Shown here: positions 13,213 through 31,456 of the stretch, in pieces
How the letters are laid out: every line of letters begins with the position of its first letter
Position numbering within the stretch: the stretch's first letter is position 1
Made by a program: the position numbers and the translations under genes
The notes under the pieces: generated by a model
Told to the model about the DNA's origin: nothing
Seen by the model: the letters and a program-made list of their open reading frames with translations, nothing else
The model's database searches: none
DNA from: a virus
Lineage: Duplodnaviria; Heunggongvirae; Uroviricota; Caudoviricetes
DNA length: 32,977 nt
Virus record (IMG/VR): IMGVR_UViG_2713896908_000011
Span: 1 to 32,977 of that record
Strand: one strand, 5' to 3'

Positions 13213-13767
13213 TCAGGCTTGAATCCCCTTATCGAATCCCGGTAATAAAAACTGTCCCTGTCTCTCCAGGCGTTTCAGCTTTGCAAGCAATTGAGGTTTT
13301 TTCGTTCTCCCCCAGCGATTGAGCAGACGGCCTGACATGCTGGCGACATCCTTCTCTTTCATGTACTCCAGCATTACGGCATTTCTCTCTTCTTCAAATT
13401 GACGATGACCAACCTGAAGCATGGCGTACATCCAGTTAAATGCGTTGATATAAGCAATTTTGATACGCATTGCTTCTTTTTTGGTGTAGGACATAACCAA
13501 AAGCATCACCCCATCCTTGCGGAGACGGTAGAATTTTTGCGGCTTACCATTCTGTAACTCATTGTTTTTATAGCAAAGCTCAAAGTTGAGCTTTGTATCA
13601 AACTCAGGAGGGCAAGCTTCTATGGTTCGTTCAATGTCACGAACTACGTTCTTCGGCAGCTTTCCAAATGCTTTTGCCACCATAAAAGAATCTGTAACCG
13701 GATCGTTGTTTGCCACAAAAATCAGATCTCGGAAATCGATGCCGTTAACGATAGTTGGATAATTCAT
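13213..13767 (-). CDS. Rha-family phage regulatory protein
   Basis: N-terminal pattern ...VTDSFMVAKAFGKLPKNVVRDIERTI...LNFE...KDGVMLLVMSYTKKEAMRIKIAYINAFNWM fits the Rha/pRha family signature as I recall it. Confidence 0.7.
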   Translation of the reverse strand: MNYPTIVNGIDFRDLIFVANNDPVTDSFMVAKAFGKLPKNVVRDIERTIEACPPEFDTKLNFELCYKNNELQNGKPQKFYRLRKDGVMLLVMSYTKKEAMRIKIAYINAFNWMYAMLQVGHRQFEEERNAVMLEYMKEKDVASMSGRLLNRWGRTKKPQLLAKLKRLERQGQFLLPGFDKGIQA

Positions 13768-13912: not shown

Positions 13913-13938
13913 ATAAAAAAGCCCCGCATCGCGAGGCT
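13913..13938 (-). terminator. rho-independent terminator downstream of the lysis cassette
   Basis: On the minus transcript, hairpin GCCUCGC-GAU-GCGGGGC (one G-U wobble) followed by U6 (plus A-run 13915..13920); 30 nt after the Rz stop. Confidence 0.6.
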
Positions 13939-13970
13939 CATTAAATTGACTTTGTGATTTGCAAAAAAAA

Positions 13971-14420
13971 TTATTTCAGGCATTGCGTCCTGATGTACTC
14001 CTGCAGGTAGTTAACCTGCGCGGTTATCCTGTCGATTCCACTTCGGAGACGGTAATAATTGAGTTCAGCATCTGCTGTAAGTCTTGAGCTTTCTCCATCG
14101 CCCATGCTGCTGGCTCCGGTCGTTGACTTTGCACAGGTGGCGGTGACTTGCAGGCGCTTACGCCCAGCAGAAACATCAGCACGTAGACTTTCGATAGTCG
14201 CGTTAGCATCAGCAAGCTCCTTTGTGTATCTGGCATCGAGTTCTGCTACATCACGTTGACGCTTCTGCATGTCAGCGATGATGTACGTGGCTTTATCGCG
14301 CTGTTCTTTATAGGTAATGGCGTTATCACGGTAATGATTAACAGCCCATGACAGACAGACGATGATGCAGATAACCAGAGTGGAGATAATCGCGGTTACT
14401 CTGCTCATTTCTGCCCCCAC
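13971..14420 (-). CDS. Rz: i-spanin Rz
   Basis: 149 aa with an N-terminal TM helix ([18 protein letters not shown]) then a coiled-coil periplasmic domain, immediately after the endolysin, with an embedded lipoprotein ORF in another frame. Confidence 0.85.
14024..14209 (-). CDS. Rz1: o-spanin Rz1 (lipoprotein embedded within Rz)
   Basis: ORF nested in Rz in a different frame, with lipobox LLGVSAC followed by a proline-rich stretch ([13 protein letters not shown]), as in lambda Rz1. Start set at the internal Met ([20 protein letters not shown]...); the exact start is uncertain. Confidence 0.75.
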
Positions 14421-14902
14421 AAACAGACTTCACGCTCAATCTCACGGCGAGTCATCAGGCCTTTCCATTGCTTACCGCCAGCATATGTCCAGCGACGTAA
14501 CTGGTCACATGCCCCTTTGATATCACCCTGGTTTATTTTGCGAAGAAGAGTCGATGTTCTGAAATTGCCTGCACCCACATTATAGACGAACGAGTAAAGA
14601 GCGCCGCGCGTTGTTTCCGGTATATCAACTTTGATGTACGGGTTAATTTGCCTGGCGACCGTGGCAAGGTCTTTATTCAGGAGGGCTTTGCATTCTGCTT
14701 CGGTATACGTTTTACCGAGCATAATGTCTTTTCCGGTGTGCCCGTAACATACAGTCCATACGCCAACGATATCTTTATATGGTATGTAGCTGACACCTTC
14801 CAGACCATCGTCACCACTCGGACCAGTGATGAGCACAGACGCTATGGCAACAGCCCCACCACCAATAGCAGCTGCAACAGCCTTGCGTAATGATGGCGAC
14901 AT
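14405..14902 (-). CDS. R: SAR endolysin (phage 21 R21-type lysozyme)
   Basis: N-terminal Gly/Ala-rich weakly hydrophobic segment [20 protein letters not shown] typical of a signal-anchor-release domain, followed by a T4-lysozyme-like domain. Directly follows a pinholin gene (ATGA overlap at 14902). Confidence 0.85.
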
Positions 14903-15117
14903 TATTCACCTCTCGCAGCCTTACGCTTATCTTCTTTAATCTTGAAATAAAGGTTTGTCAGGTACGTCAGCAAGCCAAATACCAAGCTCCCCAGCACACC
15001 AATTGCAGCCCACTGTGACGGAGTTACTTTATCGAGTAACTGCAGTGCCCAGAAGCCGGCATTACCTGCCGATGTGCCATAGGCGACACCTGTTGTTAAC
15101 TTATCCATTGATTTCAT
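14902..15117 (-). CDS. S: pinholin (phage 21 S21-like) with dual-start motif
   Basis: 71-aa sequence [31 protein letters not shown]...[22 protein letters not shown] is nearly identical to S21 as I recall it. Met1 and Met4 give the antiholin/holin dual start; two TM segments. Confidence 0.9.
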
Positions 15118-15338
15118 ATCCTCACCCCGATGTACACGGATGGTGCAATATGTTTGAAAAGATCGGAGTCTACGGGTTATTTTTTACAGCAAACGTTGTT
15201 CTCAACGACGCTCAAAAAATAGAAGCTTAAAATAATGCGGTTAAATATTTTAAAAGAAAAACCATCTATTAAATAATAATGCGGGATATATTTTTCTATT
15301 TAGTGTACTGTATACGGCCATTTATACAGGAAAAGCCT

Positions 15339-15509
15339 ATGTCAGAACGTAAAGACTCAAAATCACGCCGTAATTATCTCGTAAAATGTTCCTGCCCAAA
15401 CTGTACCCAAGAATCAGAACACAGTTTTTCTAGAGTACAAAAAGGTGCCCTTTTGATCTGCCCTCATTGCAACAAAGTATTCCAAACAAATCTTAAAGCT
15501 GTTGCCTGA
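15339..15509 (+). CDS. small zinc-ribbon protein (CxxC...CxxC), function unknown
   Basis: Start set at the internal ATG preceded by AGGAAAAG (MSERKDSKSRRNYLVKCSCPNCTQ...LICPHCNKVF...). Two CxxC pairs; opposite strand to the flanking late genes. The track ORF starts at 15279. Confidence 0.5.
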   Translation: MSERKDSKSRRNYLVKCSCPNCTQESEHSFSRVQKGALLICPHCNKVFQTNLKAVA

Positions 15510-15568: not shown

Positions 15569-15593
15569 AAAAAACCCGCCTGCGCGGGTTTGA
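15569..15593 (-). terminator. rho-independent terminator downstream of the cold-shock gene (possibly bidirectional)
   Basis: Hairpin CCCGC-CTGC-GCGGG flanked by an A-run on the plus side, so on the minus transcript it is followed by UUUUUUAUU. Confidence 0.6.
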
Positions 15594-15790
15594 GATTGTG
15601 GTGCTTTTTGTGGTAGTTACCCACTTACGCACTTTGTATTGCTATGCCAGCAGTTAGCTTCTACTGTAAAACTATTCATGCAGCAAACCTGCACTTCACC
15701 ACAAAATGGGATTCAATACCCACAACTCTATCTGCATCTCTACTCAGGCATCAGCCTTCTTCGTTATCGTATACAGACAAGCTATGAATT

Positions 15791-16006
15791 TTAATCAGTA
15801 ATAATGACATTTGCTGCTGCAGGACCTTTAGCACCACTCTCTACAGAGAAGGTAACCTTTTGGCCTTCAAATAAGGTTCGATAATTATCATTCTGAATTG
15901 CAGAAAAATGCACAAACACATCTTTACTACCATCAACAGGAGAAATAAAGCCAAAACCTTTATCAGCGTTAAACCATTTTACTAAACCAGTCATTTTATT
16001 TGACAT
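15791..16006 (-). CDS. cspB: cold-shock protein, CspA family (CspB-like)
   Basis: [53 protein letters not shown]... carries the RNP1 (KGFGFI) and RNP2 (VFVHF) motifs and matches E. coli CspB (a Qin prophage gene) as I recall it. AAGGAA Shine-Dalgarno is present. Confidence 0.9.
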
Positions 16007-16170
16007 TCTACATTCCTTAACTTGAGCCTTTCGGCATAAATGATTTGTATAACAGAAACGACTTCGTACTTAATTGGAGAGACTCAAAGAAGGAATAAGT
16101 GAATAACACCTGAAATGAGAACTGCTTTAGTAAACTACTTCGTATATCGTCTGTTCTTCAAACCGACGCT
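16007..16170 (-). promoter_or_regulatory. long 5' leader of the csp gene with cold-box-like element
   Basis: CspA-family mRNAs have ~160-nt structured leaders. The minus-strand sequence here contains GAAGAACAGACGAUAUACGAAG, reminiscent of the cspA cold box (UGACGUACAGA). Boundaries are approximate. Confidence 0.4.
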
Positions 16171-16247
16171 GTCATTAACGCATAGTTGTACACCTGGAAG
16201 CAATGTTTATTTTAGACATCCAGCCATCTCCCCATTTAAAACACAAA

Positions 16248-16267
16248 AACCCGCTCATTAGCGGGTT
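16248..16267 (-). terminator. candidate tR'-like terminator downstream of PR'
   Basis: Perfect hairpin AACCCGCT-CATT-AGCGGGTT flanked by A- and T-runs; on the minus transcript it is followed by UUUUUGUGUUUU. About 50 nt downstream of the predicted PR' start. Confidence 0.55.
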
Positions 16268-16314
16268 TTCTACTTTTTCTCAACACCGGACATACAAAGC
16301 CCATTGTTGAGAAA

Positions 16315-16343
16315 ATTTTATCCATGTTTTTTGAAAAATGCAA
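16315..16343 (-). promoter_or_regulatory. candidate late promoter PR' (sigma70 -35/-10) just downstream of Q
   Basis: Minus strand reads TTGCAT - 17 nt - TAAAAT (-35 at plus 16338..16343, -10 at plus 16315..16320), 30 nt downstream of the Q stop, the canonical PR'/qut position in lambdoid phages. Confidence 0.5.
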
Positions 16344-16374
16344 ACATCATGTCGATATCTTCGGCGAAAATTAT

Positions 16375-17127
16375 TTATCTTGTCACTTTTCTCAACAGTG
16401 CTTCTGCATATGCTTCTTCCTGCCAGCACTTTGTAACCAGTTTATCAATAACATCAGCATACCCCTTGTACCACTGATAATCCGTCAGGTCCGGTACCAG
16501 TTTCTGGACATGATGCCGCGCCAGTGTGGTTGGTAAACGGCTAAACCGATTTCCATTGCAACGCCCACAAATCTTATAAACCGGCGTGCCATGAAGCCGG
16601 GTTCTTTTTTCATCCAGGACAATACCTTTACCCTTACACCCTCTGCACGCTGTGCTGACTTCTCCCTTACCATGGCAATGCTGACATAGTTCCTTCACCC
16701 ACTCTTCCTTGATAACAGATTCCCCGCTTCTGGAGTGTTTCACCACTTCGCGCAATACATTATGAAATCCAGTACCAGCACAATGCTCACAGCGAGCCTT
16801 ACTTGCCGCAGACCTGGAATAATCAGCAAAGGCAAAATTCACAAGGTAAGGGATGATCTGTAACCGGGTTTCTTCACTCAATTTATTCAATGTCGGGTTA
16901 TCCAGTGCCATCGCGTAATTGAGCAGACCTTCGATCGCAAACTGAGGATCCTGAACACCAACTTTTGCCAGGAATAAGGCAAAACCCAGTGGTGCTTTCG
17001 ACTGCACCATCCCCTGCGCAGCCATCACATCTGTAATTGTTAAACCACCCGAGCCTGTCGCCGGTGCGTCATCACTCAATTTTGGAGATTTTGGGGAGTA
17101 ATATTTTGGTAAGGCTTCAAGGTTCAT
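16375..17127 (-). CDS. Q: late-gene antitermination protein Q (phage 21/82-type family)
   Basis: 250 aa with multiple CxxC pairs (CEHCAGTG, CQHCHGKG, CRGCKGKG, CGRCNG) typical of zinc-binding Q proteins; positioned between the early/replication genes and the lysis genes. Confidence 0.8.
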   Translation of the reverse strand: MNLEALPKYYSPKSPKLSDDAPATGSGGLTITDVMAAQGMVQSKAPLGFALFLAKVGVQDPQFAIEGLLNYAMALDNPTLNKLSEETRLQIIPYLVNFAFADYSRSAASKARCEHCAGTGFHNVLREVVKHSRSGESVIKEEWVKELCQHCHGKGEVSTACRGCKGKGIVLDEKRTRLHGTPVYKICGRCNGNRFSRLPTTLARHHVQKLVPDLTDYQWYKGYADVIDKLVTKCWQEEAYAEALLRKVTR

Positions 17128-19431: not shown

Positions 19432-20085
19432 TCATGCCGCCATCTCCCTGACCAGTTTTTCTGCCTGCTGGCGAACCTGCGCCAGAAAGGCCTCACCACA
19501 TGCCTCAAGTTCATCGCGCCCGATGTAGCTGATTGCCGGTCCCTTCCAGGTCTTGTCGAAAACAGCAATAGCACCAGCAAAGAAAGCGCCTGTCGGCACC
19601 TGCTTCTCGTCCTTCGGGATAAACCAGGCAGGCAGTTCAAAACCAATACGCCCGCGAATAAAAGCAATATGGTCCGCATCTTCCGGCCACCACACTTCAC
19701 TGGTGGCAGCTTTGATCAGGAAAACATAGCGCCCGCCTTTATCACGCATGGCACTGGCATGTTTCATGATGTAACGCATGCCGGTGATGTATTGCCCCTC
19801 ATGCTGACTGGCGCGGCTGTATGGGGGATTACCAAAGGCAGCACCTTTAAGCTCCGCAAGACGTTCTGACCAGTCATGCGCCAGCGCGTTGTCTTCCGCC
19901 GTGTAATACGCGGCACATTTGGCGTTATCACCGTCGGTGAACAGATCCAGAACAAACGGGCCAAACAGGGTGTTAATTCCCCAGAAAATGTTGTCCGGCG
20001 TGCGCCACTGATCGCCCACTTCCTTCAGTTCATGGGCTGGTTTGTTCCGCAGTTCCACCAGCGCCTGGCAATATTTATTACTCAT
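19432..20085 (-). CDS. phage N6-adenine DNA methyltransferase (Dam-like)
   Basis: Motif IV FGNPPYSR (the DPPY/NPPY signature of N6-adenine methyltransferases). Start set at the Met whose ATG overlaps the upstream gene stop (TAATG); the track start at 20118 is the alternative. Confidence 0.8.
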   Translation of the reverse strand: MSNKYCQALVELRNKPAHELKEVGDQWRTPDNIFWGINTLFGPFVLDLFTDGDNAKCAAYYTAEDNALAHDWSERLAELKGAAFGNPPYSRASQHEGQYITGMRYIMKHASAMRDKGGRYVFLIKAATSEVWWPEDADHIAFIRGRIGFELPAWFIPKDEKQVPTGAFFAGAIAVFDKTWKGPAISYIGRDELEACGEAFLAQVRQQAEKLVREMAA

Positions 20086-20579
20086 TAAGCCCCCACGTAA
20101 TTCCCTGACAGATACCACTCTTCACCCGATGCAGCGCGCTTGCTGCTTTTCCGTAAGCACCGCTCACGACGCGCCAGAAAATTGTTTCGTTCTGGCTGGG
20201 AGTGGCTTTCACGGAATGCCGCCATCCACACCGTTGCAGCACGACGGTATAAGCCCCTGGACTCCAGTTCTTCAGCCTGGCGGGTCAGGCACAAAATCAC
20301 TCGGGGATCGTTAGTGCCGACATAGAAATTGCGCACAGGTCTGGTTTCACGAACTGGTTGTGGTTCCGGCTCCTGCGCTCTCTCAGTCAGGCGCGGGAAA
20401 TGTCTGCGTGTATCTCCTTCACAACGGTGAGCCACACGCCCACTCTGACGTAACTTGCTTGCTGACTGCAGAACGCGCTGCCGTGAGTAACCTGCAAAAG
20501 CATCCGCAATGTCTCCGGAAGTACACCCCGGATGGGCTTCAATGAATTTCTGAACGTCATTCAAAAGACTCATAATCAC
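20085..20579 (-). CDS. PerC-family transcriptional regulator homolog
   Basis: C-terminal ...AEELESRGLYRRAATVWMAAF...ERNNFLARRERCL resembles the PerC/Pch signature (LE..GLWRRAA..W). The N-terminal ~60 aa look like an extra winged-helix-type segment. Confidence 0.6.
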   Translation of the reverse strand: MIMSLLNDVQKFIEAHPGCTSGDIADAFAGYSRQRVLQSASKLRQSGRVAHRCEGDTRRHFPRLTERAQEPEPQPVRETRPVRNFYVGTNDPRVILCLTRQAEELESRGLYRRAATVWMAAFRESHSQPERNNFLARRERCLRKSSKRAASGEEWYLSGNYVGA

Positions 20580-23588: not shown

Positions 23589-24104
23589 TTATCGGTCAGA
23601 TTTAAACTGGGGTTCTGGCAAAACTGGTGGTGTTGAATCTTCAAATCGTAACCAGTGTTCCCAAATATCATGTGTTCGTAATTTCTGTAGACTAATTTGA
23701 CGCGATGCAATTGCGGAATTAGTGGTTACTCCACCAGAAGCATCGCCCTCTACTGACGTTGAGGCTTTTTCTACTAATTCTGACCAAGCTTCACTTTCTG
23801 CGTCAAAAGCTTCTGTTAAGTCCCGCAGACGCTGTGGCTCATTTTTATGGTCTTCCTTCAAACGATTCAAAGCGGCAGTTGAATACTTATTCCTGACCCA
23901 TTCGATCTGAGTTAGCTGAATCCGCAGACAATTATCTATATCAATGGTTGTGTTCTGAGGCATGTCAGAACAAGAAATATAAAAGGTCACAACTCCACCG
24001 TTCAAACTACTGCCCGGTTCGATTAAAACATTAGAGGAATTTGACGTAGTCGGCAATATTAATGCTAACGACAAAACCACATGTTTAACAGAAATCGCAC
24101 CCAT
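23589..24104 (-). CDS. hypothetical exported or membrane-anchored protein (moron between cI and the early-left operon)
   Basis: 171 aa with AGAGGG Shine-Dalgarno. N-terminus MGAISVKHVVLSLALILPTTS resembles a signal peptide or signal anchor. Convergent with cI and followed by a terminator; this is the slot that rexAB/sieB-type exclusion genes occupy in lambdoid phages. Confidence 0.6.
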   Translation of the reverse strand: MGAISVKHVVLSLALILPTTSNSSNVLIEPGSSLNGGVVTFYISCSDMPQNTTIDIDNCLRIQLTQIEWVRNKYSTAALNRLKEDHKNEPQRLRDLTEAFDAESEAWSELVEKASTSVEGDASGGVTTNSAIASRQISLQKLRTHDIWEHWLRFEDSTPPVLPEPQFKSDR

Positions 24105-24430
24105 TTAAATTGCCCTCTAAAGAACAAGGTCATCCAGATTAACCGAAACCTGGTTATTGGGGAATAACCAAATCCACCTCGCCTGATGTGGCTAAAAGCA
24201 GGCACATAACAGCTAAGTATTTTCAACCAGAGAGAATCCTTAGCGTTGTGGTGAATGCGCAGGCTGATGCGCGAAAGACATTGCAGCTATTGCGGAAAAG
24301 AGCTGTTCGGCGGGGCAATTAAATGCCTGTGAGAGTCTGAAATAACCGCAAGCCGGAGATCAGCACCGGTCACCACAACAGCCACTGCTTTGGCGGTACC
24401 AGTTTGTACACTTACTTCCGGCTGGTACCG

Positions 24431-24535
24431 CTCTTTTTACAAAACAGAGAAGAGCATCACCGGACGACGGGCTCATAACCCAATCCATCCGGGCGGCTGC
24501 CACCGCAGGTGTTCTTCTCTGTTTTGTGGAGAAAC
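24431..24535 (+). ncRNA. candidate structured RNA element in the early-left leader (long inverted repeat)
   Basis: Perfect 15-bp inverted repeat ACAAAACAGAGAAGA (24439..24453) / TCTTCTCTGTTTTGT (24513..24527), extendable with G-U pairs, enclosing a GC-rich 59-nt segment; located ~40 nt upstream of the first early-left gene. Confidence 0.35.
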
Positions 24536-24575
24536 TAACCGACCTTGCAGGGTCGATATGATGAGGAGCAGCAAA

Positions 24576-24938
24576 ATGGCTAGCGAACGCAGTACTGATG
24601 TGCAGGCATTTATCGGGGAGCTGGACGGCGGCGTATTTGAAACCAAAATCGGCGCAGTTCTCAGTGAAGTCGCTTCCGGTGTGATGAACACGAAAACCAA
24701 AGGTAAGGTCTCGCTCAACCTGGAAATCGAACCGTTTGATGAGAACCGTGTGAAAATCAAACACAAACTCTCATATGTTCGCCCGACTAACCGCGGGAAA
24801 ATTTCCGAAGAAGACACCACCGAAACGCCGATGTATGTCAATCGCGGTGGTCGCCTGACTATTCTGCAGGAAGACCAGGGACAATTACTGACTCTTGCCG
24901 GTGAACCTGACGGAAAACTCCGCGCAGCAGGTCATTAA
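24576..24938 (+). CDS. YfdP-like hypothetical protein
   Basis: ATG with GAGGAG Shine-Dalgarno 7 nt upstream; 120 aa (MASERSTDVQAFIGELDGG...). Precedes a YfdQ-like gene as in the CPS-53 prophage gene order I recall. The track ORF start at 24390 is rejected. Confidence 0.55.
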   Translation: MASERSTDVQAFIGELDGGVFETKIGAVLSEVASGVMNTKTKGKVSLNLEIEPFDENRVKIKHKLSYVRPTNRGKISEEDTTETPMYVNRGGRLTILQEDQGQLLTLAGEPDGKLRAAGH

Positions 24939-29546: not shown

Positions 29547-30656
29547 ATGGAAAACAAGACCAATAAGGAAAAAAGTGTAAGAATTAGGCTGGCTTTTAAA
29601 AGATGGCAGCGAAGTGTTTCCCGTCAAGGGAAAGAGTATTCGCAGTTTCGTCAACAAAAAAAATCTCAAAAGAAAAAAGATAATACCTTTATTCGGTTTC
29701 CATCTGAGTTTTCAATATATTCACCAGATAAGCCTAATTTTTTTGCGCACTCTCTACACTCGATAAATCACGTCAGGAATAAAAAATACAATCCTGATGA
29801 GAGATTATATTTAGATTTTACAAATACAAAAACAATAAAAATGGCAGCATTAGTAATACTTTATGCCAGTGTTGAAACTTCAATTCGTAAAGGTTTATCG
29901 TACAGATTATTATTTTCAACAGATTTTAAAGTCAATCAGCTTTTAAGAGACTCGGGTCTTGTCGCCTTATGTCGGGGCGAAAAATTAAAACCTGTCTTCG
30001 AAAACGTTGAAAACTTGCCCATTATTAGCGGGGTAGGAGGAGAATATAGAGATGAGATTATAGATTTCATCCAGAAAGAAATTTATAAAAACAAGATGAA
30101 ACCTGAAACAGAACATACATATGCAGATGCTGTTCAGGAAGCAATAAATAATGTTGGTTTACACGCCTATCCGCATAAAAATAATGATGAGAAACGATGG
30201 TGGCTTGCATGTCACGTAATTCATGACCAGCTGTATCTTGCTATATATGATGAAGGTGTTGGTATACCTGAAACTGTAATGCAAAAGACATGGTTTATGA
30301 GTACGCTCAAATCAAAATATCCAGATCTAAAGGTTGCGGTTAACGAAGAACTTGAGAGAATAGGTTTAGGTTATAAAGAGCGCTCTAAAGTAAAAGTTGG
30401 TATTGTTTCTGATGCAGTAAAAATAGCAATTTCTATGATTGGAGACGTAACCGGTACAGCCAATGATAAACATGGTCAAGGAAGTAAGAGTATTAAAGCT
30501 CTAGTACTAAATAATGAACATGGAAACCTTTGGATTTACAGTAATTTAGGTATGTTCAAGCTTTCTAATAAGAAAGGTGATAAAATTAATGAGTTAACTC
30601 ATAAAGTACCAGGTACTTTAATTCAGTGGAACATCAAGGTCAGCTATGAAGACTAA
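29547..30656 (+). CDS. GHKL-superfamily ATPase/kinase, RsbW/SpoIIAB-like (anti-sigma-factor-type HATPase_c) with novel N-terminal domain
   Basis: 369 aa with AGGAG Shine-Dalgarno. Bergerat-fold motifs in the C-terminal half: N-box AVQEAINNVGLHAY (compare EA.TNA..HAY of RsbW/SpoIIAB), G1-box IYDEGVGIP, G2-like ERIGLGYKE. The N-terminal ~190 aa are Lys/Arg-rich and not recognised. AT-rich codon usage. Confidence 0.7.
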   Translation: MENKTNKEKSVRIRLAFKRWQRSVSRQGKEYSQFRQQKKSQKKKDNTFIRFPSEFSIYSPDKPNFFAHSLHSINHVRNKKYNPDERLYLDFTNTKTIKMAALVILYASVETSIRKGLSYRLLFSTDFKVNQLLRDSGLVALCRGEKLKPVFENVENLPIISGVGGEYRDEIIDFIQKEIYKNKMKPETEHTYADAVQEAINNVGLHAYPHKNNDEKRWWLACHVIHDQLYLAIYDEGVGIPETVMQKTWFMSTLKSKYPDLKVAVNEELERIGLGYKERSKVKVGIVSDAVKIAISMIGDVTGTANDKHGQGSKSIKALVLNNEHGNLWIYSNLGMFKLSNKKGDKINELTHKVPGTLIQWNIKVSYED

Positions 30657-30978
30657 AAACATCAATGTTATCAAAGACTTCAACAGTAAGCCTTACGGGC
30701 GCTATCCAGACGATGGGGCAGGCTGTGGGGAAAACTTTCGCAAATATCTGGCAGGCTTTCTCAAAGAGTATGATTTAGTTCATGTTGAGTTGACTGGATA
30801 TAACCGTTATGGGCGTTCATTTATTGATGAAGCGTTTGGTGGCTTGATCCGAGTAGAAGGCTACACATTAAGCGAACTTAAGAAAAAACTAACTTATACT
30901 CATAAAGATATTAAGAGTATTGAGACCTTGATTGATGAACGATTGAATAAGGCAGAGAGTGATGCAGGAAGAGGTTAA
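30646..30978 (+). CDS. DUF4325/STAS-like small protein (putative anti-anti-sigma-type partner of the GHKL protein)
   Basis: 110 aa, ATG overlapping the upstream gene by 11 nt. Core VHVELTGYNRYGRSFIDEAFGGLIR matches the DUF4325 STAS-like pattern (LDF.GV...S.SF.DE.FG.L) as I recall it. Confidence 0.6.
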   Translation: MKTKNINVIKDFNSKPYGRYPDDGAGCGENFRKYLAGFLKEYDLVHVELTGYNRYGRSFIDEAFGGLIRVEGYTLSELKKKLTYTHKDIKSIETLIDERLNKAESDAGRG

Positions 30979-31456
30979 TTATACAAGTATTGTGATTGCT
31001 ATAATTGGTTGGCTTGTTGCGTCTTATTTCAACAATAGAGCATTCAAGCGAAATGATATTTCAAGGCAAAAGGATAAAATCTGTCAGCAAATAGAATCTC
31101 TTTTTGATAATGTTTTAGATAAGCTCTCTTCTAGAGATACTAAAGAATTAGAGCTGGATAATTTTTTAGCCTCCAGTGTCTCATTAATTGAAATGCAGCT
31201 GTCTCATTTATCACAAAGGATTGGTAAGAAATTATTATGTGATGAACAGTTGTCATCTATCAGATCAACACCTTTAGACTTGTTAAGCAAAAAGTGTGAT
31301 TATAAAAATGAACTTCATGAGATGAAGTATTCAATATTAGAGGAAATTGAAGGTAATTATACAAAATGGTTTTTTGATAGTTACTCAAAAAGATTCAAAT
31401 CCATCTTTGCATCAAAAAGAAGCACACCTAATACTGATCTGAATAGACTATCTTGA
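30962..31456 (+). CDS. single-pass membrane protein (candidate effector of the cassette)
   Basis: Overlaps the upstream stop by ~17 nt. N-terminal TM helix (SIVIAIIGWLVASYF) followed by a ~140-aa helical soluble domain with no recognisable motif. ATG at 30962 preferred over the GTG at 30959. Confidence 0.6.
   Translation: MQEEVNYTSIVIAIIGWLVASYFNNRAFKRNDISRQKDKICQQIESLFDNVLDKLSSRDTKELELDNFLASSVSLIEMQLSHLSQRIGKKLLCDEQLSSIRSTPLDLLSKKCDYKNELHEMKYSILEEIEGNYTKWFFDSYSKRFKSIFASKRSTPNTDLNRLS

Follow-up and report, generated by a model that had tools for sequence, protein, structure and literature searches.

A phage 21-like lysis cassette with a phage 1717-type distal spanin module in a probable lambdoid prophage of Escherichia albertii

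Organization of the lysis cassette

The window analyzed here is a whole stretch of 32,977 nucleotides of tailed-phage DNA (IMG/VR record IMGVR_UViG_2713896908_000011, positions 1 to 32,977), in which four genes for host cell lysis lie together between positions 13971 and 15117: S, coding for a holin; R, for an endolysin; Rz, for an inner-membrane spanin subunit (i-spanin); and Rz1, for an outer-membrane lipoprotein spanin subunit (o-spanin). The limits of this cassette are the Rz stop codon and the S Met1 codon, and all four genes are on the minus strand (Table 1). An earlier note, made from the nucleotide sequence, had described a complete cassette here with four intact reading frames, and the present analysis agrees. 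Each of the four open reading frames (ORFs) matches a Pfam family, and neither reading of the ORFs nor comparison with phage genomes revealed a frameshift or internal stop in any of the four genes. Their lengths (216, 498, 438, and 186 nt for S, R, Rz, and Rz1) are base-for-base colinear with the genomes of the phages Stx2a_F349, PhiR49_1, and ev099 and with five other E. albertii-type copies. A single base (TAATG) is common to S and R, an ATGA overlap joins the R stop to the Rz start, and a Shine-Dalgarno (SD) sequence is present ahead of every start codon in the cassette.

The Pfam matches are to PF04971, "Bacteriophage P21 holin S" (S; E=6.7e-34, 116.1 bits against a cut-off of 26), PF00959, phage lysozyme (R; E=7.3e-47), PF03245 (Rz; E=1.7e-35, 122.4 bits), and PF06085 (Rz1; E=4e-20, 71.7 bits). 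As all four products score far above their own Pfam thresholds, the cassette is more than a chance arrangement. The PHROGs labels for the products are holin, endolysin, and, twice, Rz-like spanin. No NCBIfam model matched S, Rz, or Rz1 and R reached only a sub-threshold match, a result that is uninformative rather than contradictory.

Table 1. Positions of the lysis genes and of other features in the window
Feature	Positions	Strand	Properties and evidence
S (holin), long product	14902-15117	minus	71 aa; predicted antiholin form, homologue of S21-71; Met1 start and Lys2; ORF, PF04971
S, short product	14902-15108	minus	68 aa; predicted pinholin form, homologue of S21-68; Met4 start (MDK...)
R (predicted SAR endolysin, GH24 muramidase)	14405-14902	minus	165 aa; SAR domain about residues 8-27; E35, D44, T50
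Rz (i-spanin)	13971-14408	minus	145 aa; transmembrane domain at residues 5-23; Cys92 and Cys143; PF03245, phrog_13
Rz1 (o-spanin lipoprotein precursor)	14024-14209	minus	61 aa; lipobox VSA-C20; PF06085, phrog_3198
Mosaic junction in Rz	14150-14157	minus	about Rz codon 86, the Rz1 Cys20 (lipobox) codon; identity drop against E. coli SF-468
Rz codon 107 (P107S)	14088-14090	minus	silent in the Rz1 frame
Rz codon 10 (A10T)	14379-14381	minus	within the transmembrane domain
Q-type antiterminator	16375-17127	minus	250 aa; PF03589 (Antiterm) at the same position in 99-100% identical contigs; SF-468 counterpart annotated as antitermination
Candidate late regulatory region	16245-16344	minus	pR'/tR' position downstream of Q; promoter-like 16344-16315, hairpin terminator 16270-16245; consensus matches
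Terminator-like hairpin	13919-13939	minus	9-bp stem, 6 G-C pairs, T tract; 32 nt after the Rz stop; pattern scan

For the two spanin genes other start codons were considered and rejected. A GTG at 14420, given for Rz in the program-made ORF list (149 aa), is ruled out by the ATGA overlap at ATG 14408, by the MSRVTAIIS N-termini of the homologues, and by the alignment to phrog_13 (E=3.5e-71), which starts at residue 5 of the GTG-started ORF. Likewise, ATG 14236 (70 aa in the same list) and ATG 14176 were discarded for Rz1, as only ATG 14209 has an SD sequence (AAGGAG, then 7 nt) before it. Starting there yields a normal 19-residue lipoprotein signal, and the alignment to phrog_3198 (E=9.5e-29) begins at residue 10 of the 70-aa ORF.

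The holin and endolysin genes

S begins M1-K2-S3-M4-D5-K6, the dual-start motif of the phage 21 holin S21, with Met1 at 15117 and Met4 in frame 9 nt downstream at 15108; the earlier note had picked out this MKSMDK motif, and M1-K2-S3-M4 proved identical to S21. The phage 21 reference was OL657228.1; an S21 sequence used solely as a probe matched that record at 100%. Both products, the antipinholin S21-71 and the pinholin S21-68, are annotated in OL657228.1, and the gene in the window has been called as the 68-aa form in one public contig. In phage 21, the extra positive charge of S21-71 (Lys2) has a role in antiholin function, while S21-68 forms small, heptameric holes of about 2 nm that depolarize the membrane and do not allow passage of folded endolysin. 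Over its 71 residues S shares 58 with phage 21 S (81.7%) and 68 with EssD of the E. coli K-12 prophage DLP12 (95.8%), and D2 and K3 of the 68-aa form are conserved relative to S21.

A transmembrane check had been proposed in the earlier note, and hydropathy gave S a weak first transmembrane domain (TMD) followed by a normal second one. TMD1 (residues 8-28) is weakly hydrophobic, with a mean Kyte-Doolittle (KD) value of 0.57 and 57% Gly, Ala, Ser, or Thr, and resembles a signal-anchor-release (SAR) segment, while TMD2 (residues 36-57) has a mean KD of 1.44. Residues 33-46 are identical to those of S21, and G40, S44, and G48 of TMD2 are all kept. Pang et al. reportedly described the significance of this G40xxxS44xxxG48 glycine face in S21 TMD2. 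By its similarity, its MKSM dual start, and its two-TMD pattern, S is a predicted S21-type pinholin.

R is identical to phage 21 R (R21) at 157 of 165 residues (95.2%) and to K-12 RrrD at 96.4%, and it aligns without gaps to the Protein Data Bank entries 4ZPU (RrrD; E=2.4e-108) and 3HDE (R21; E=1.7e-107). The structures of R21 have been solved for both the full-length, membrane-tethered protein (3HDE) and the released form (3HDF). The lysozyme catalytic motif is defined as E-X8-D-X5-T, and the corresponding triad of R, E35-X8-D44-X5-T50, is complete. Neither of the defects that the earlier note had set out beforehand, a frameshift or a missing residue of this triad, was found. Consistent with the Gly/Ala-rich SAR N-terminus claimed in that note, the basic residues R6 and K7 are followed, ahead of the GH24 domain, by a 20-residue Gly/Ala-rich segment (65% Gly, Ala, Ser, or Thr) that differs from the SAR domain of R21 solely by V18I, and a signal-peptidase-like cleavage context is absent. 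Given its identity to R21, R would be exported by Sec, tethered to the membrane in an inactive form, and released on depolarization.

The spanin genes and their mosaic junction

Rz has a single N-terminal TMD with a mean KD of 2.49, and its periplasmic cysteines, Cys92 and Cys143, correspond in the alignment to C99 and C152 of phage 21 Rz, which is of the lambda type. Rz1 has Lys rather than Asp at position +2 of its lipobox. Under the +2 rule of Lol sorting, lipoproteins without Asp at this position go to the outer membrane. As the earlier note had noticed, the Rz1 gene is wholly nested in Rz in another frame; it is read in the +1 frame and runs from 0.46 to 0.88 of the length (L) of the Rz gene. 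Embedded o-spanin genes typically span 0.4-0.5 L to 0.9-1 L of the i-spanin gene, and the placement here is of this kind.

The resemblance to phage 21 is much weaker for these two proteins, so that the "phage-21-type" label of the earlier note fits S and R and does not extend to the spanin. Rz is 55.8% identical to its phage 21 counterpart and 54.5% to DLP12 RzpD, and Rz1 is 34.9% identical both to phage 21 Rz1 and to RzoD. Rz is also shorter, at 145 aa versus 153 in phage 21, with a 7-aa deletion in the first coiled-coil (helical) region. By these figures the pair falls outside the lambda/phage 21 Rz-Rz1 allele and is a different allele, presumably with a lambda Rz/Rz1-like way of working. 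The same 145-aa/61-aa allele is intact and colinear in Stx2a_F349, PhiR49_1, and ev099, and Rz1 is annotated in Stx2a_F349; insofar as function can be read from the genomes of deposited phages, the spanin would be a working allele. In the 186 nt that code for both Rz and Rz1, 6-7 differences (about 3.5%) separate the window from these three genomes, making this the least diverged segment of the cassette (R, 6-9%; S, 11-22%), and neither overlap frame contains a stop. The numbers are small, and their direction fits the expectation for dual-coding DNA.

A sharp boundary between the two parts of the cassette is seen against E. coli SF-468. Counted per 30 nt, identity between SF-468 and the window drops from 29-30 positions to 18 and then to 7-13 at about 14150-14157. 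On the proximal side, the two share S, R, the N-terminal half of Rz (79 of 86 residues), and the Rz1 signal peptide. On the distal side, the Rz half of SF-468 is lambda-like and matches the window at 24 of 61 residues, and its mature Rz1 is lambda-like as well. Similarly, blastn homology to phage 21 DNA runs from precisely the S ATG to about 14160. Beyond the junction the C-terminal half of Rz and mature Rz1 are unlike those of phage 21, lambda, DLP12, and the SF-468 allele, and by sequence this distal module is assigned to the type found in Stx2 phage 1717. The distal half of Rz and mature Rz1, which are the interacting parts, appear to have been exchanged together as one module, which fits the modularity described by lambda genetics.

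Occurrence and comparison with known systems

Over 12,096 bp the window matches the E. albertii draft contig BBWC01000013.1 (assembly GCA_001515045.1) at 100% identity, and four further genomes match it at about 99%. The exact proteins are in NCBI as EssD (MULTISPECIES, Escherichia), RrrD, the "lysis protein" WP_059221644.1 (Rz), and BAT42093.1, "putative lipoprotein Rz1 precursor [Escherichia albertii]". Relatives of the cassette are found in 345 phage records; among complete E. coli genomes, 5420 of 5426 have them, in several copies each. The cassette is ordinary, textbook biology, with all four exact proteins already catalogued.

Phage 21 has the same gene order, the 216-nt S and 498-nt R, the one-base S/R and four-base R/Rz overlaps, the MKSM dual start, and Rz1 embedded in the +1 frame, but its upstream DNA is unrelated, with tRNA genes in place of the cspB and ynfU genes of the prophage. 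DLP12 (essD-rrrD-rzpD-rzoD) resembles the cassette in its holin and in its endolysin, the protein of structure 4ZPU. However, RzpD and RzoD form a lambda-type spanin, and DLP12 is annotated as cryptic, its late region being broken by IS5 in nmpC. The TMD and first 39 residues of Rz in the window are nearly identical to those of phage 21 and DLP12 Rz, both of the lambda type. Like this cassette, the lambda genes S-R-Rz-Rz1 occupy a late-operon position and follow a three-step lysis logic with a dual-start holin and an embedded +1 Rz1. In lambda, however, S105 is a class I holin with three TMDs that forms micron-scale holes, and R, which has no SAR domain, is a cytoplasmic transglycosylase.

The Stx2 phage 1717-type group, with Stx2a_F349, PhiR49_1, and ev099, has the same spanin allele and the same geometry of the whole cassette, with 135-137 of 145 Rz residues and 58-59 of 61 Rz1 residues identical to the window. 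It differs in having flanking OmpD or KilA-N genes, as opposed to cspB or Rha here. The Stx2a_F349 holin differs from S at 14 of 71 residues and begins MYQMEK, with two in-frame Met codons and no Lys2, so its long form would be without the charge thought to make S21-71 an antiholin. The Q-cspB-ynfU-holin neighborhood is found in the Qin prophage (quuQ/ydfT-cspB-cspF-ynfU-essQ-rrrQ), and matches to E. coli genomes arranged in this way are at about 94%. SF-468 also has the order Q-cspB-ynfU-essD-rrrD but differs in the distal spanin module. None of the 5426 complete E. coli genomes covers at least 80% of the 4.2-kb stretch from Q to Rha.

Proposed function and alternative explanations

Given the above, the locus is very probably the late-operon lysis cassette of an E. 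albertii lambdoid prophage that uses the pinholin/SAR-endolysin pathway. Its genes are intact and carry the motifs and homologies described; its expression, timing, and actual lysis would be expected to resemble those of phage 21 by homology. Following the literature on phage 21 and lambda lysis, the repressor would be cleaved, and RNA polymerase modified by Q, which presumably switches on late transcription of the cassette, would start at the candidate promoter beyond Q and read across the cspB moron with its terminators into S-R-Rz/Rz1. A pR'/tR'-like role for the candidate regulatory region can be placed by analogy with the annotated phage 21 layout of pR', Q-binding element, and terminator. 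S would be made from two starts, the 71-aa form acting as an antiholin as its extra Lys2 would keep TMD1 in the membrane. In the 68-aa form TMD1 would exit the bilayer, and TMD2 could then oligomerize into nanometer-scale pinholes that collapse the proton motive force. After Sec export, the Gly/Ala-rich SAR domain would keep R inactive in the inner membrane until depolarization freed it, and R would then refold so that its E35/D44/T50 site cuts the murein. After murein loss, Rz in the inner membrane and Rz1 as an outer-membrane lipoprotein would together span the periplasm and disrupt the outer membrane.

The earlier note had favored the pinholin/SAR strategy over the canonical one of lambda, and the identities of S and R to phage 21 bear this out. 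A reading with S as a large-hole holin of the canonical kind and R as a lysozyme that is soluble or secreted is scarcely credible. Nothing specific speaks for it, beyond hole size and SAR release being unreadable from sequence, while S shares its TMD2 core with S21, an experimentally defined pinholin, and R differs from R21 in the SAR domain only by V18I, has no signal-peptidase-like context, and is coupled to S by one base. An intact cassette could also lie in a defective (cryptic) prophage that releases no virions and at most serves the host, a role proposed for the essD-rrrD-rzpD genes of DLP12 in E. coli K-12. DLP12, annotated as cryptic, has S and R proteins 96% identical to these, many of the related cassettes in complete E. 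coli genomes must be in decayed prophages, and the tail-tip and fiber end of the present prophage lies beyond the window. However, the modules that are in the window are all open and full length: an integrase at its edge, the S24 repressor with a CII-like gene nearby, replication genes, Q, the lysis genes, and, downstream of the cassette, the small and large terminases, portal, a ClpP-capsid fusion, and tail genes (tail tube, chaperones) to the tape measure. No insertion sequence (IS) elements or pseudogenes were seen in the window, and the 12-kb block is 99% conserved in five other genomes. The repressor, a 208-aa helix-turn-helix-S24 protein, has the A87-G88, GDSM, and VKKL motifs of the autocleavable type. 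A cryptic state is thus unlikely. As no visible module is broken, it is reasonable to infer that the prophage is inducible and lysis-competent; this is plausible and consistent with the cleavable S24 repressor and the intact Q, packaging, head, and tail genes.

Several observations weigh against a cassette that works in every respect like its models. The aromatic patch of S TMD1 is FWALQL versus YWFLQW in S21, where it is reported to stabilize the assembled pore, so the change could alter timing or pore stability; FWALQL is recorded from 210 contigs, which marks it as an allele and not a lesion. Mature Rz1 is without a second Cys, the lambda-type C29 being missing, and keeps only 2 of 5 prolines aligned to the penta-proline stretch of phage 21 Rz1, a stretch reported to be essential in lambda. 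RPEPA stands there instead, with a PPP upstream of it and nearer to the lipid anchor. The lambda spanin needs a disulfide through either Rz C152 or Rz1 C29, and Rz C152 alone suffices; by the same token, Rz C143 would suffice in this cassette. Rz itself carries two private substitutions relative to five 99%-identical copies, A10T and P107S. Pro at position 107, which we take to correspond to lambda P117 by our own count of the lambda sequence, is conserved in 8 of 8 Rz sequences that share this distal module as well as in SF-468, phage 21, and DLP12, and the exact Rz protein is recorded from one contig only. Both substitutions could be real polymorphisms or draft-assembly errors.

If these substitutions impaired the spanin, induced cells would become spherical and get no further unless aided by shear or by low divalent-cation conditions. 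The conservation of Pro107, the single record of the exact Rz, and the absence of a periplasmic Cys from Rz1, which leaves dimerization wholly to the Rz cysteines, would be in keeping with such a defect. Nonetheless, we regard it as very unlikely. The two substitutions are conservative ones, and in the Rz1 frame P107S changes no amino acid. In lambda, a near-saturating screen of the Rz L2 linker (89-120), which contains the equivalent of P107, gave only R91P and L93S as defective; Ser-Gly repeats can stand in for residues 100-115, and an artificial TMD for the native one. With a mutation-tolerant linker and a replaceable TMD in lambda, both A10T and P107S are probably neutral. A spanin that functions in a slightly different manner is a further possibility, one we hold only tentatively and consider doubtful. 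The distal module, formed by the second coiled coil of Rz and mature Rz1, would be one recombination unit bounded at the Rz1 lipobox Cys codon, with a somewhat non-lambda Rz-Rz1 contact or fusogenic motif that relies wholly on the Rz C143 disulfide. This suggestion follows from an Rz1 without periplasmic Cys and from RPEPA with the upstream PPP in place of the essential PPPPP of lambda.

The cassette has little significance beyond its correct annotation. The E. albertii prophage appears to have the full equipment for timed pinholin/SAR lysis, which bears on SOS-induced release of the prophage and any cargo. The Rz junction at the Rz1 lipobox is a natural illustration of spanin-subunit modularity, in line with expected lambdoid mosaicism and involving no new mechanism.

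Neighboring genes of the prophage

The hairpin at 13919-13939 may act as a weak candidate terminator for the cassette; its folding energy is not unusual relative to shuffled sequences (z = -1.14, centroid fold). A cspB-like cold-shock gene lies between Q and S at 15775-16167 (minus strand; coding sequence 15791-16006), as a moron in the late operon like that in Qin. Its leader matches the full cspA thermoregulator, Rfam RF01766, with 155.9 bits (gathering score 78), and a terminator-like hairpin belonging to the gene lies at 15572-15591. About 160 nt upstream of S, an ORF of the YnfU zinc-ribbon family (15279-15509, plus strand; PF23499, E=5e-31) is antisense to the late transcript; annotated YnfU homologues are 56 aa, which would correspond to about 15339-15509. 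On the other side of the cassette, between it and the terminase genes, is the Rha/ORF11CD3 regulatory gene (13213-13767, minus strand), at a site that holds bor in phage 21, lambda, and DLP12 and KilA-N-ORF11CD3 in related phages.

Beside the repressor, two ORFs of 171 and 134 aa (23589-24764, minus strand) without a Pfam, NCBIfam, or PADLOC match occupy a position where lambdoid phages often carry superinfection-exclusion genes. By the integrase, at 29547-31456 (plus strand), a 369-aa ORF has a weak, sub-threshold match to an RsbW/SpoIIAB-like ATPase (E=2e-6) and is accompanied by a DUF4325 STAS-like protein and a 165-aa protein without a family; these ORFs resemble a partner-switching pair carried as prophage cargo. 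PADLOC returned nothing for the uncharacterized ORFs near the integrase and in the immunity region. In the early-right region, an ORF of the PerC family lies at 20085-20579 (minus strand), with PF06069 in public gene calls and a weak ANR-like match. Prophage-encoded PerC/Pch homologues regulate the locus of enterocyte effacement (LEE) island in attaching-effacing E. coli, and E. albertii itself carries the LEE.

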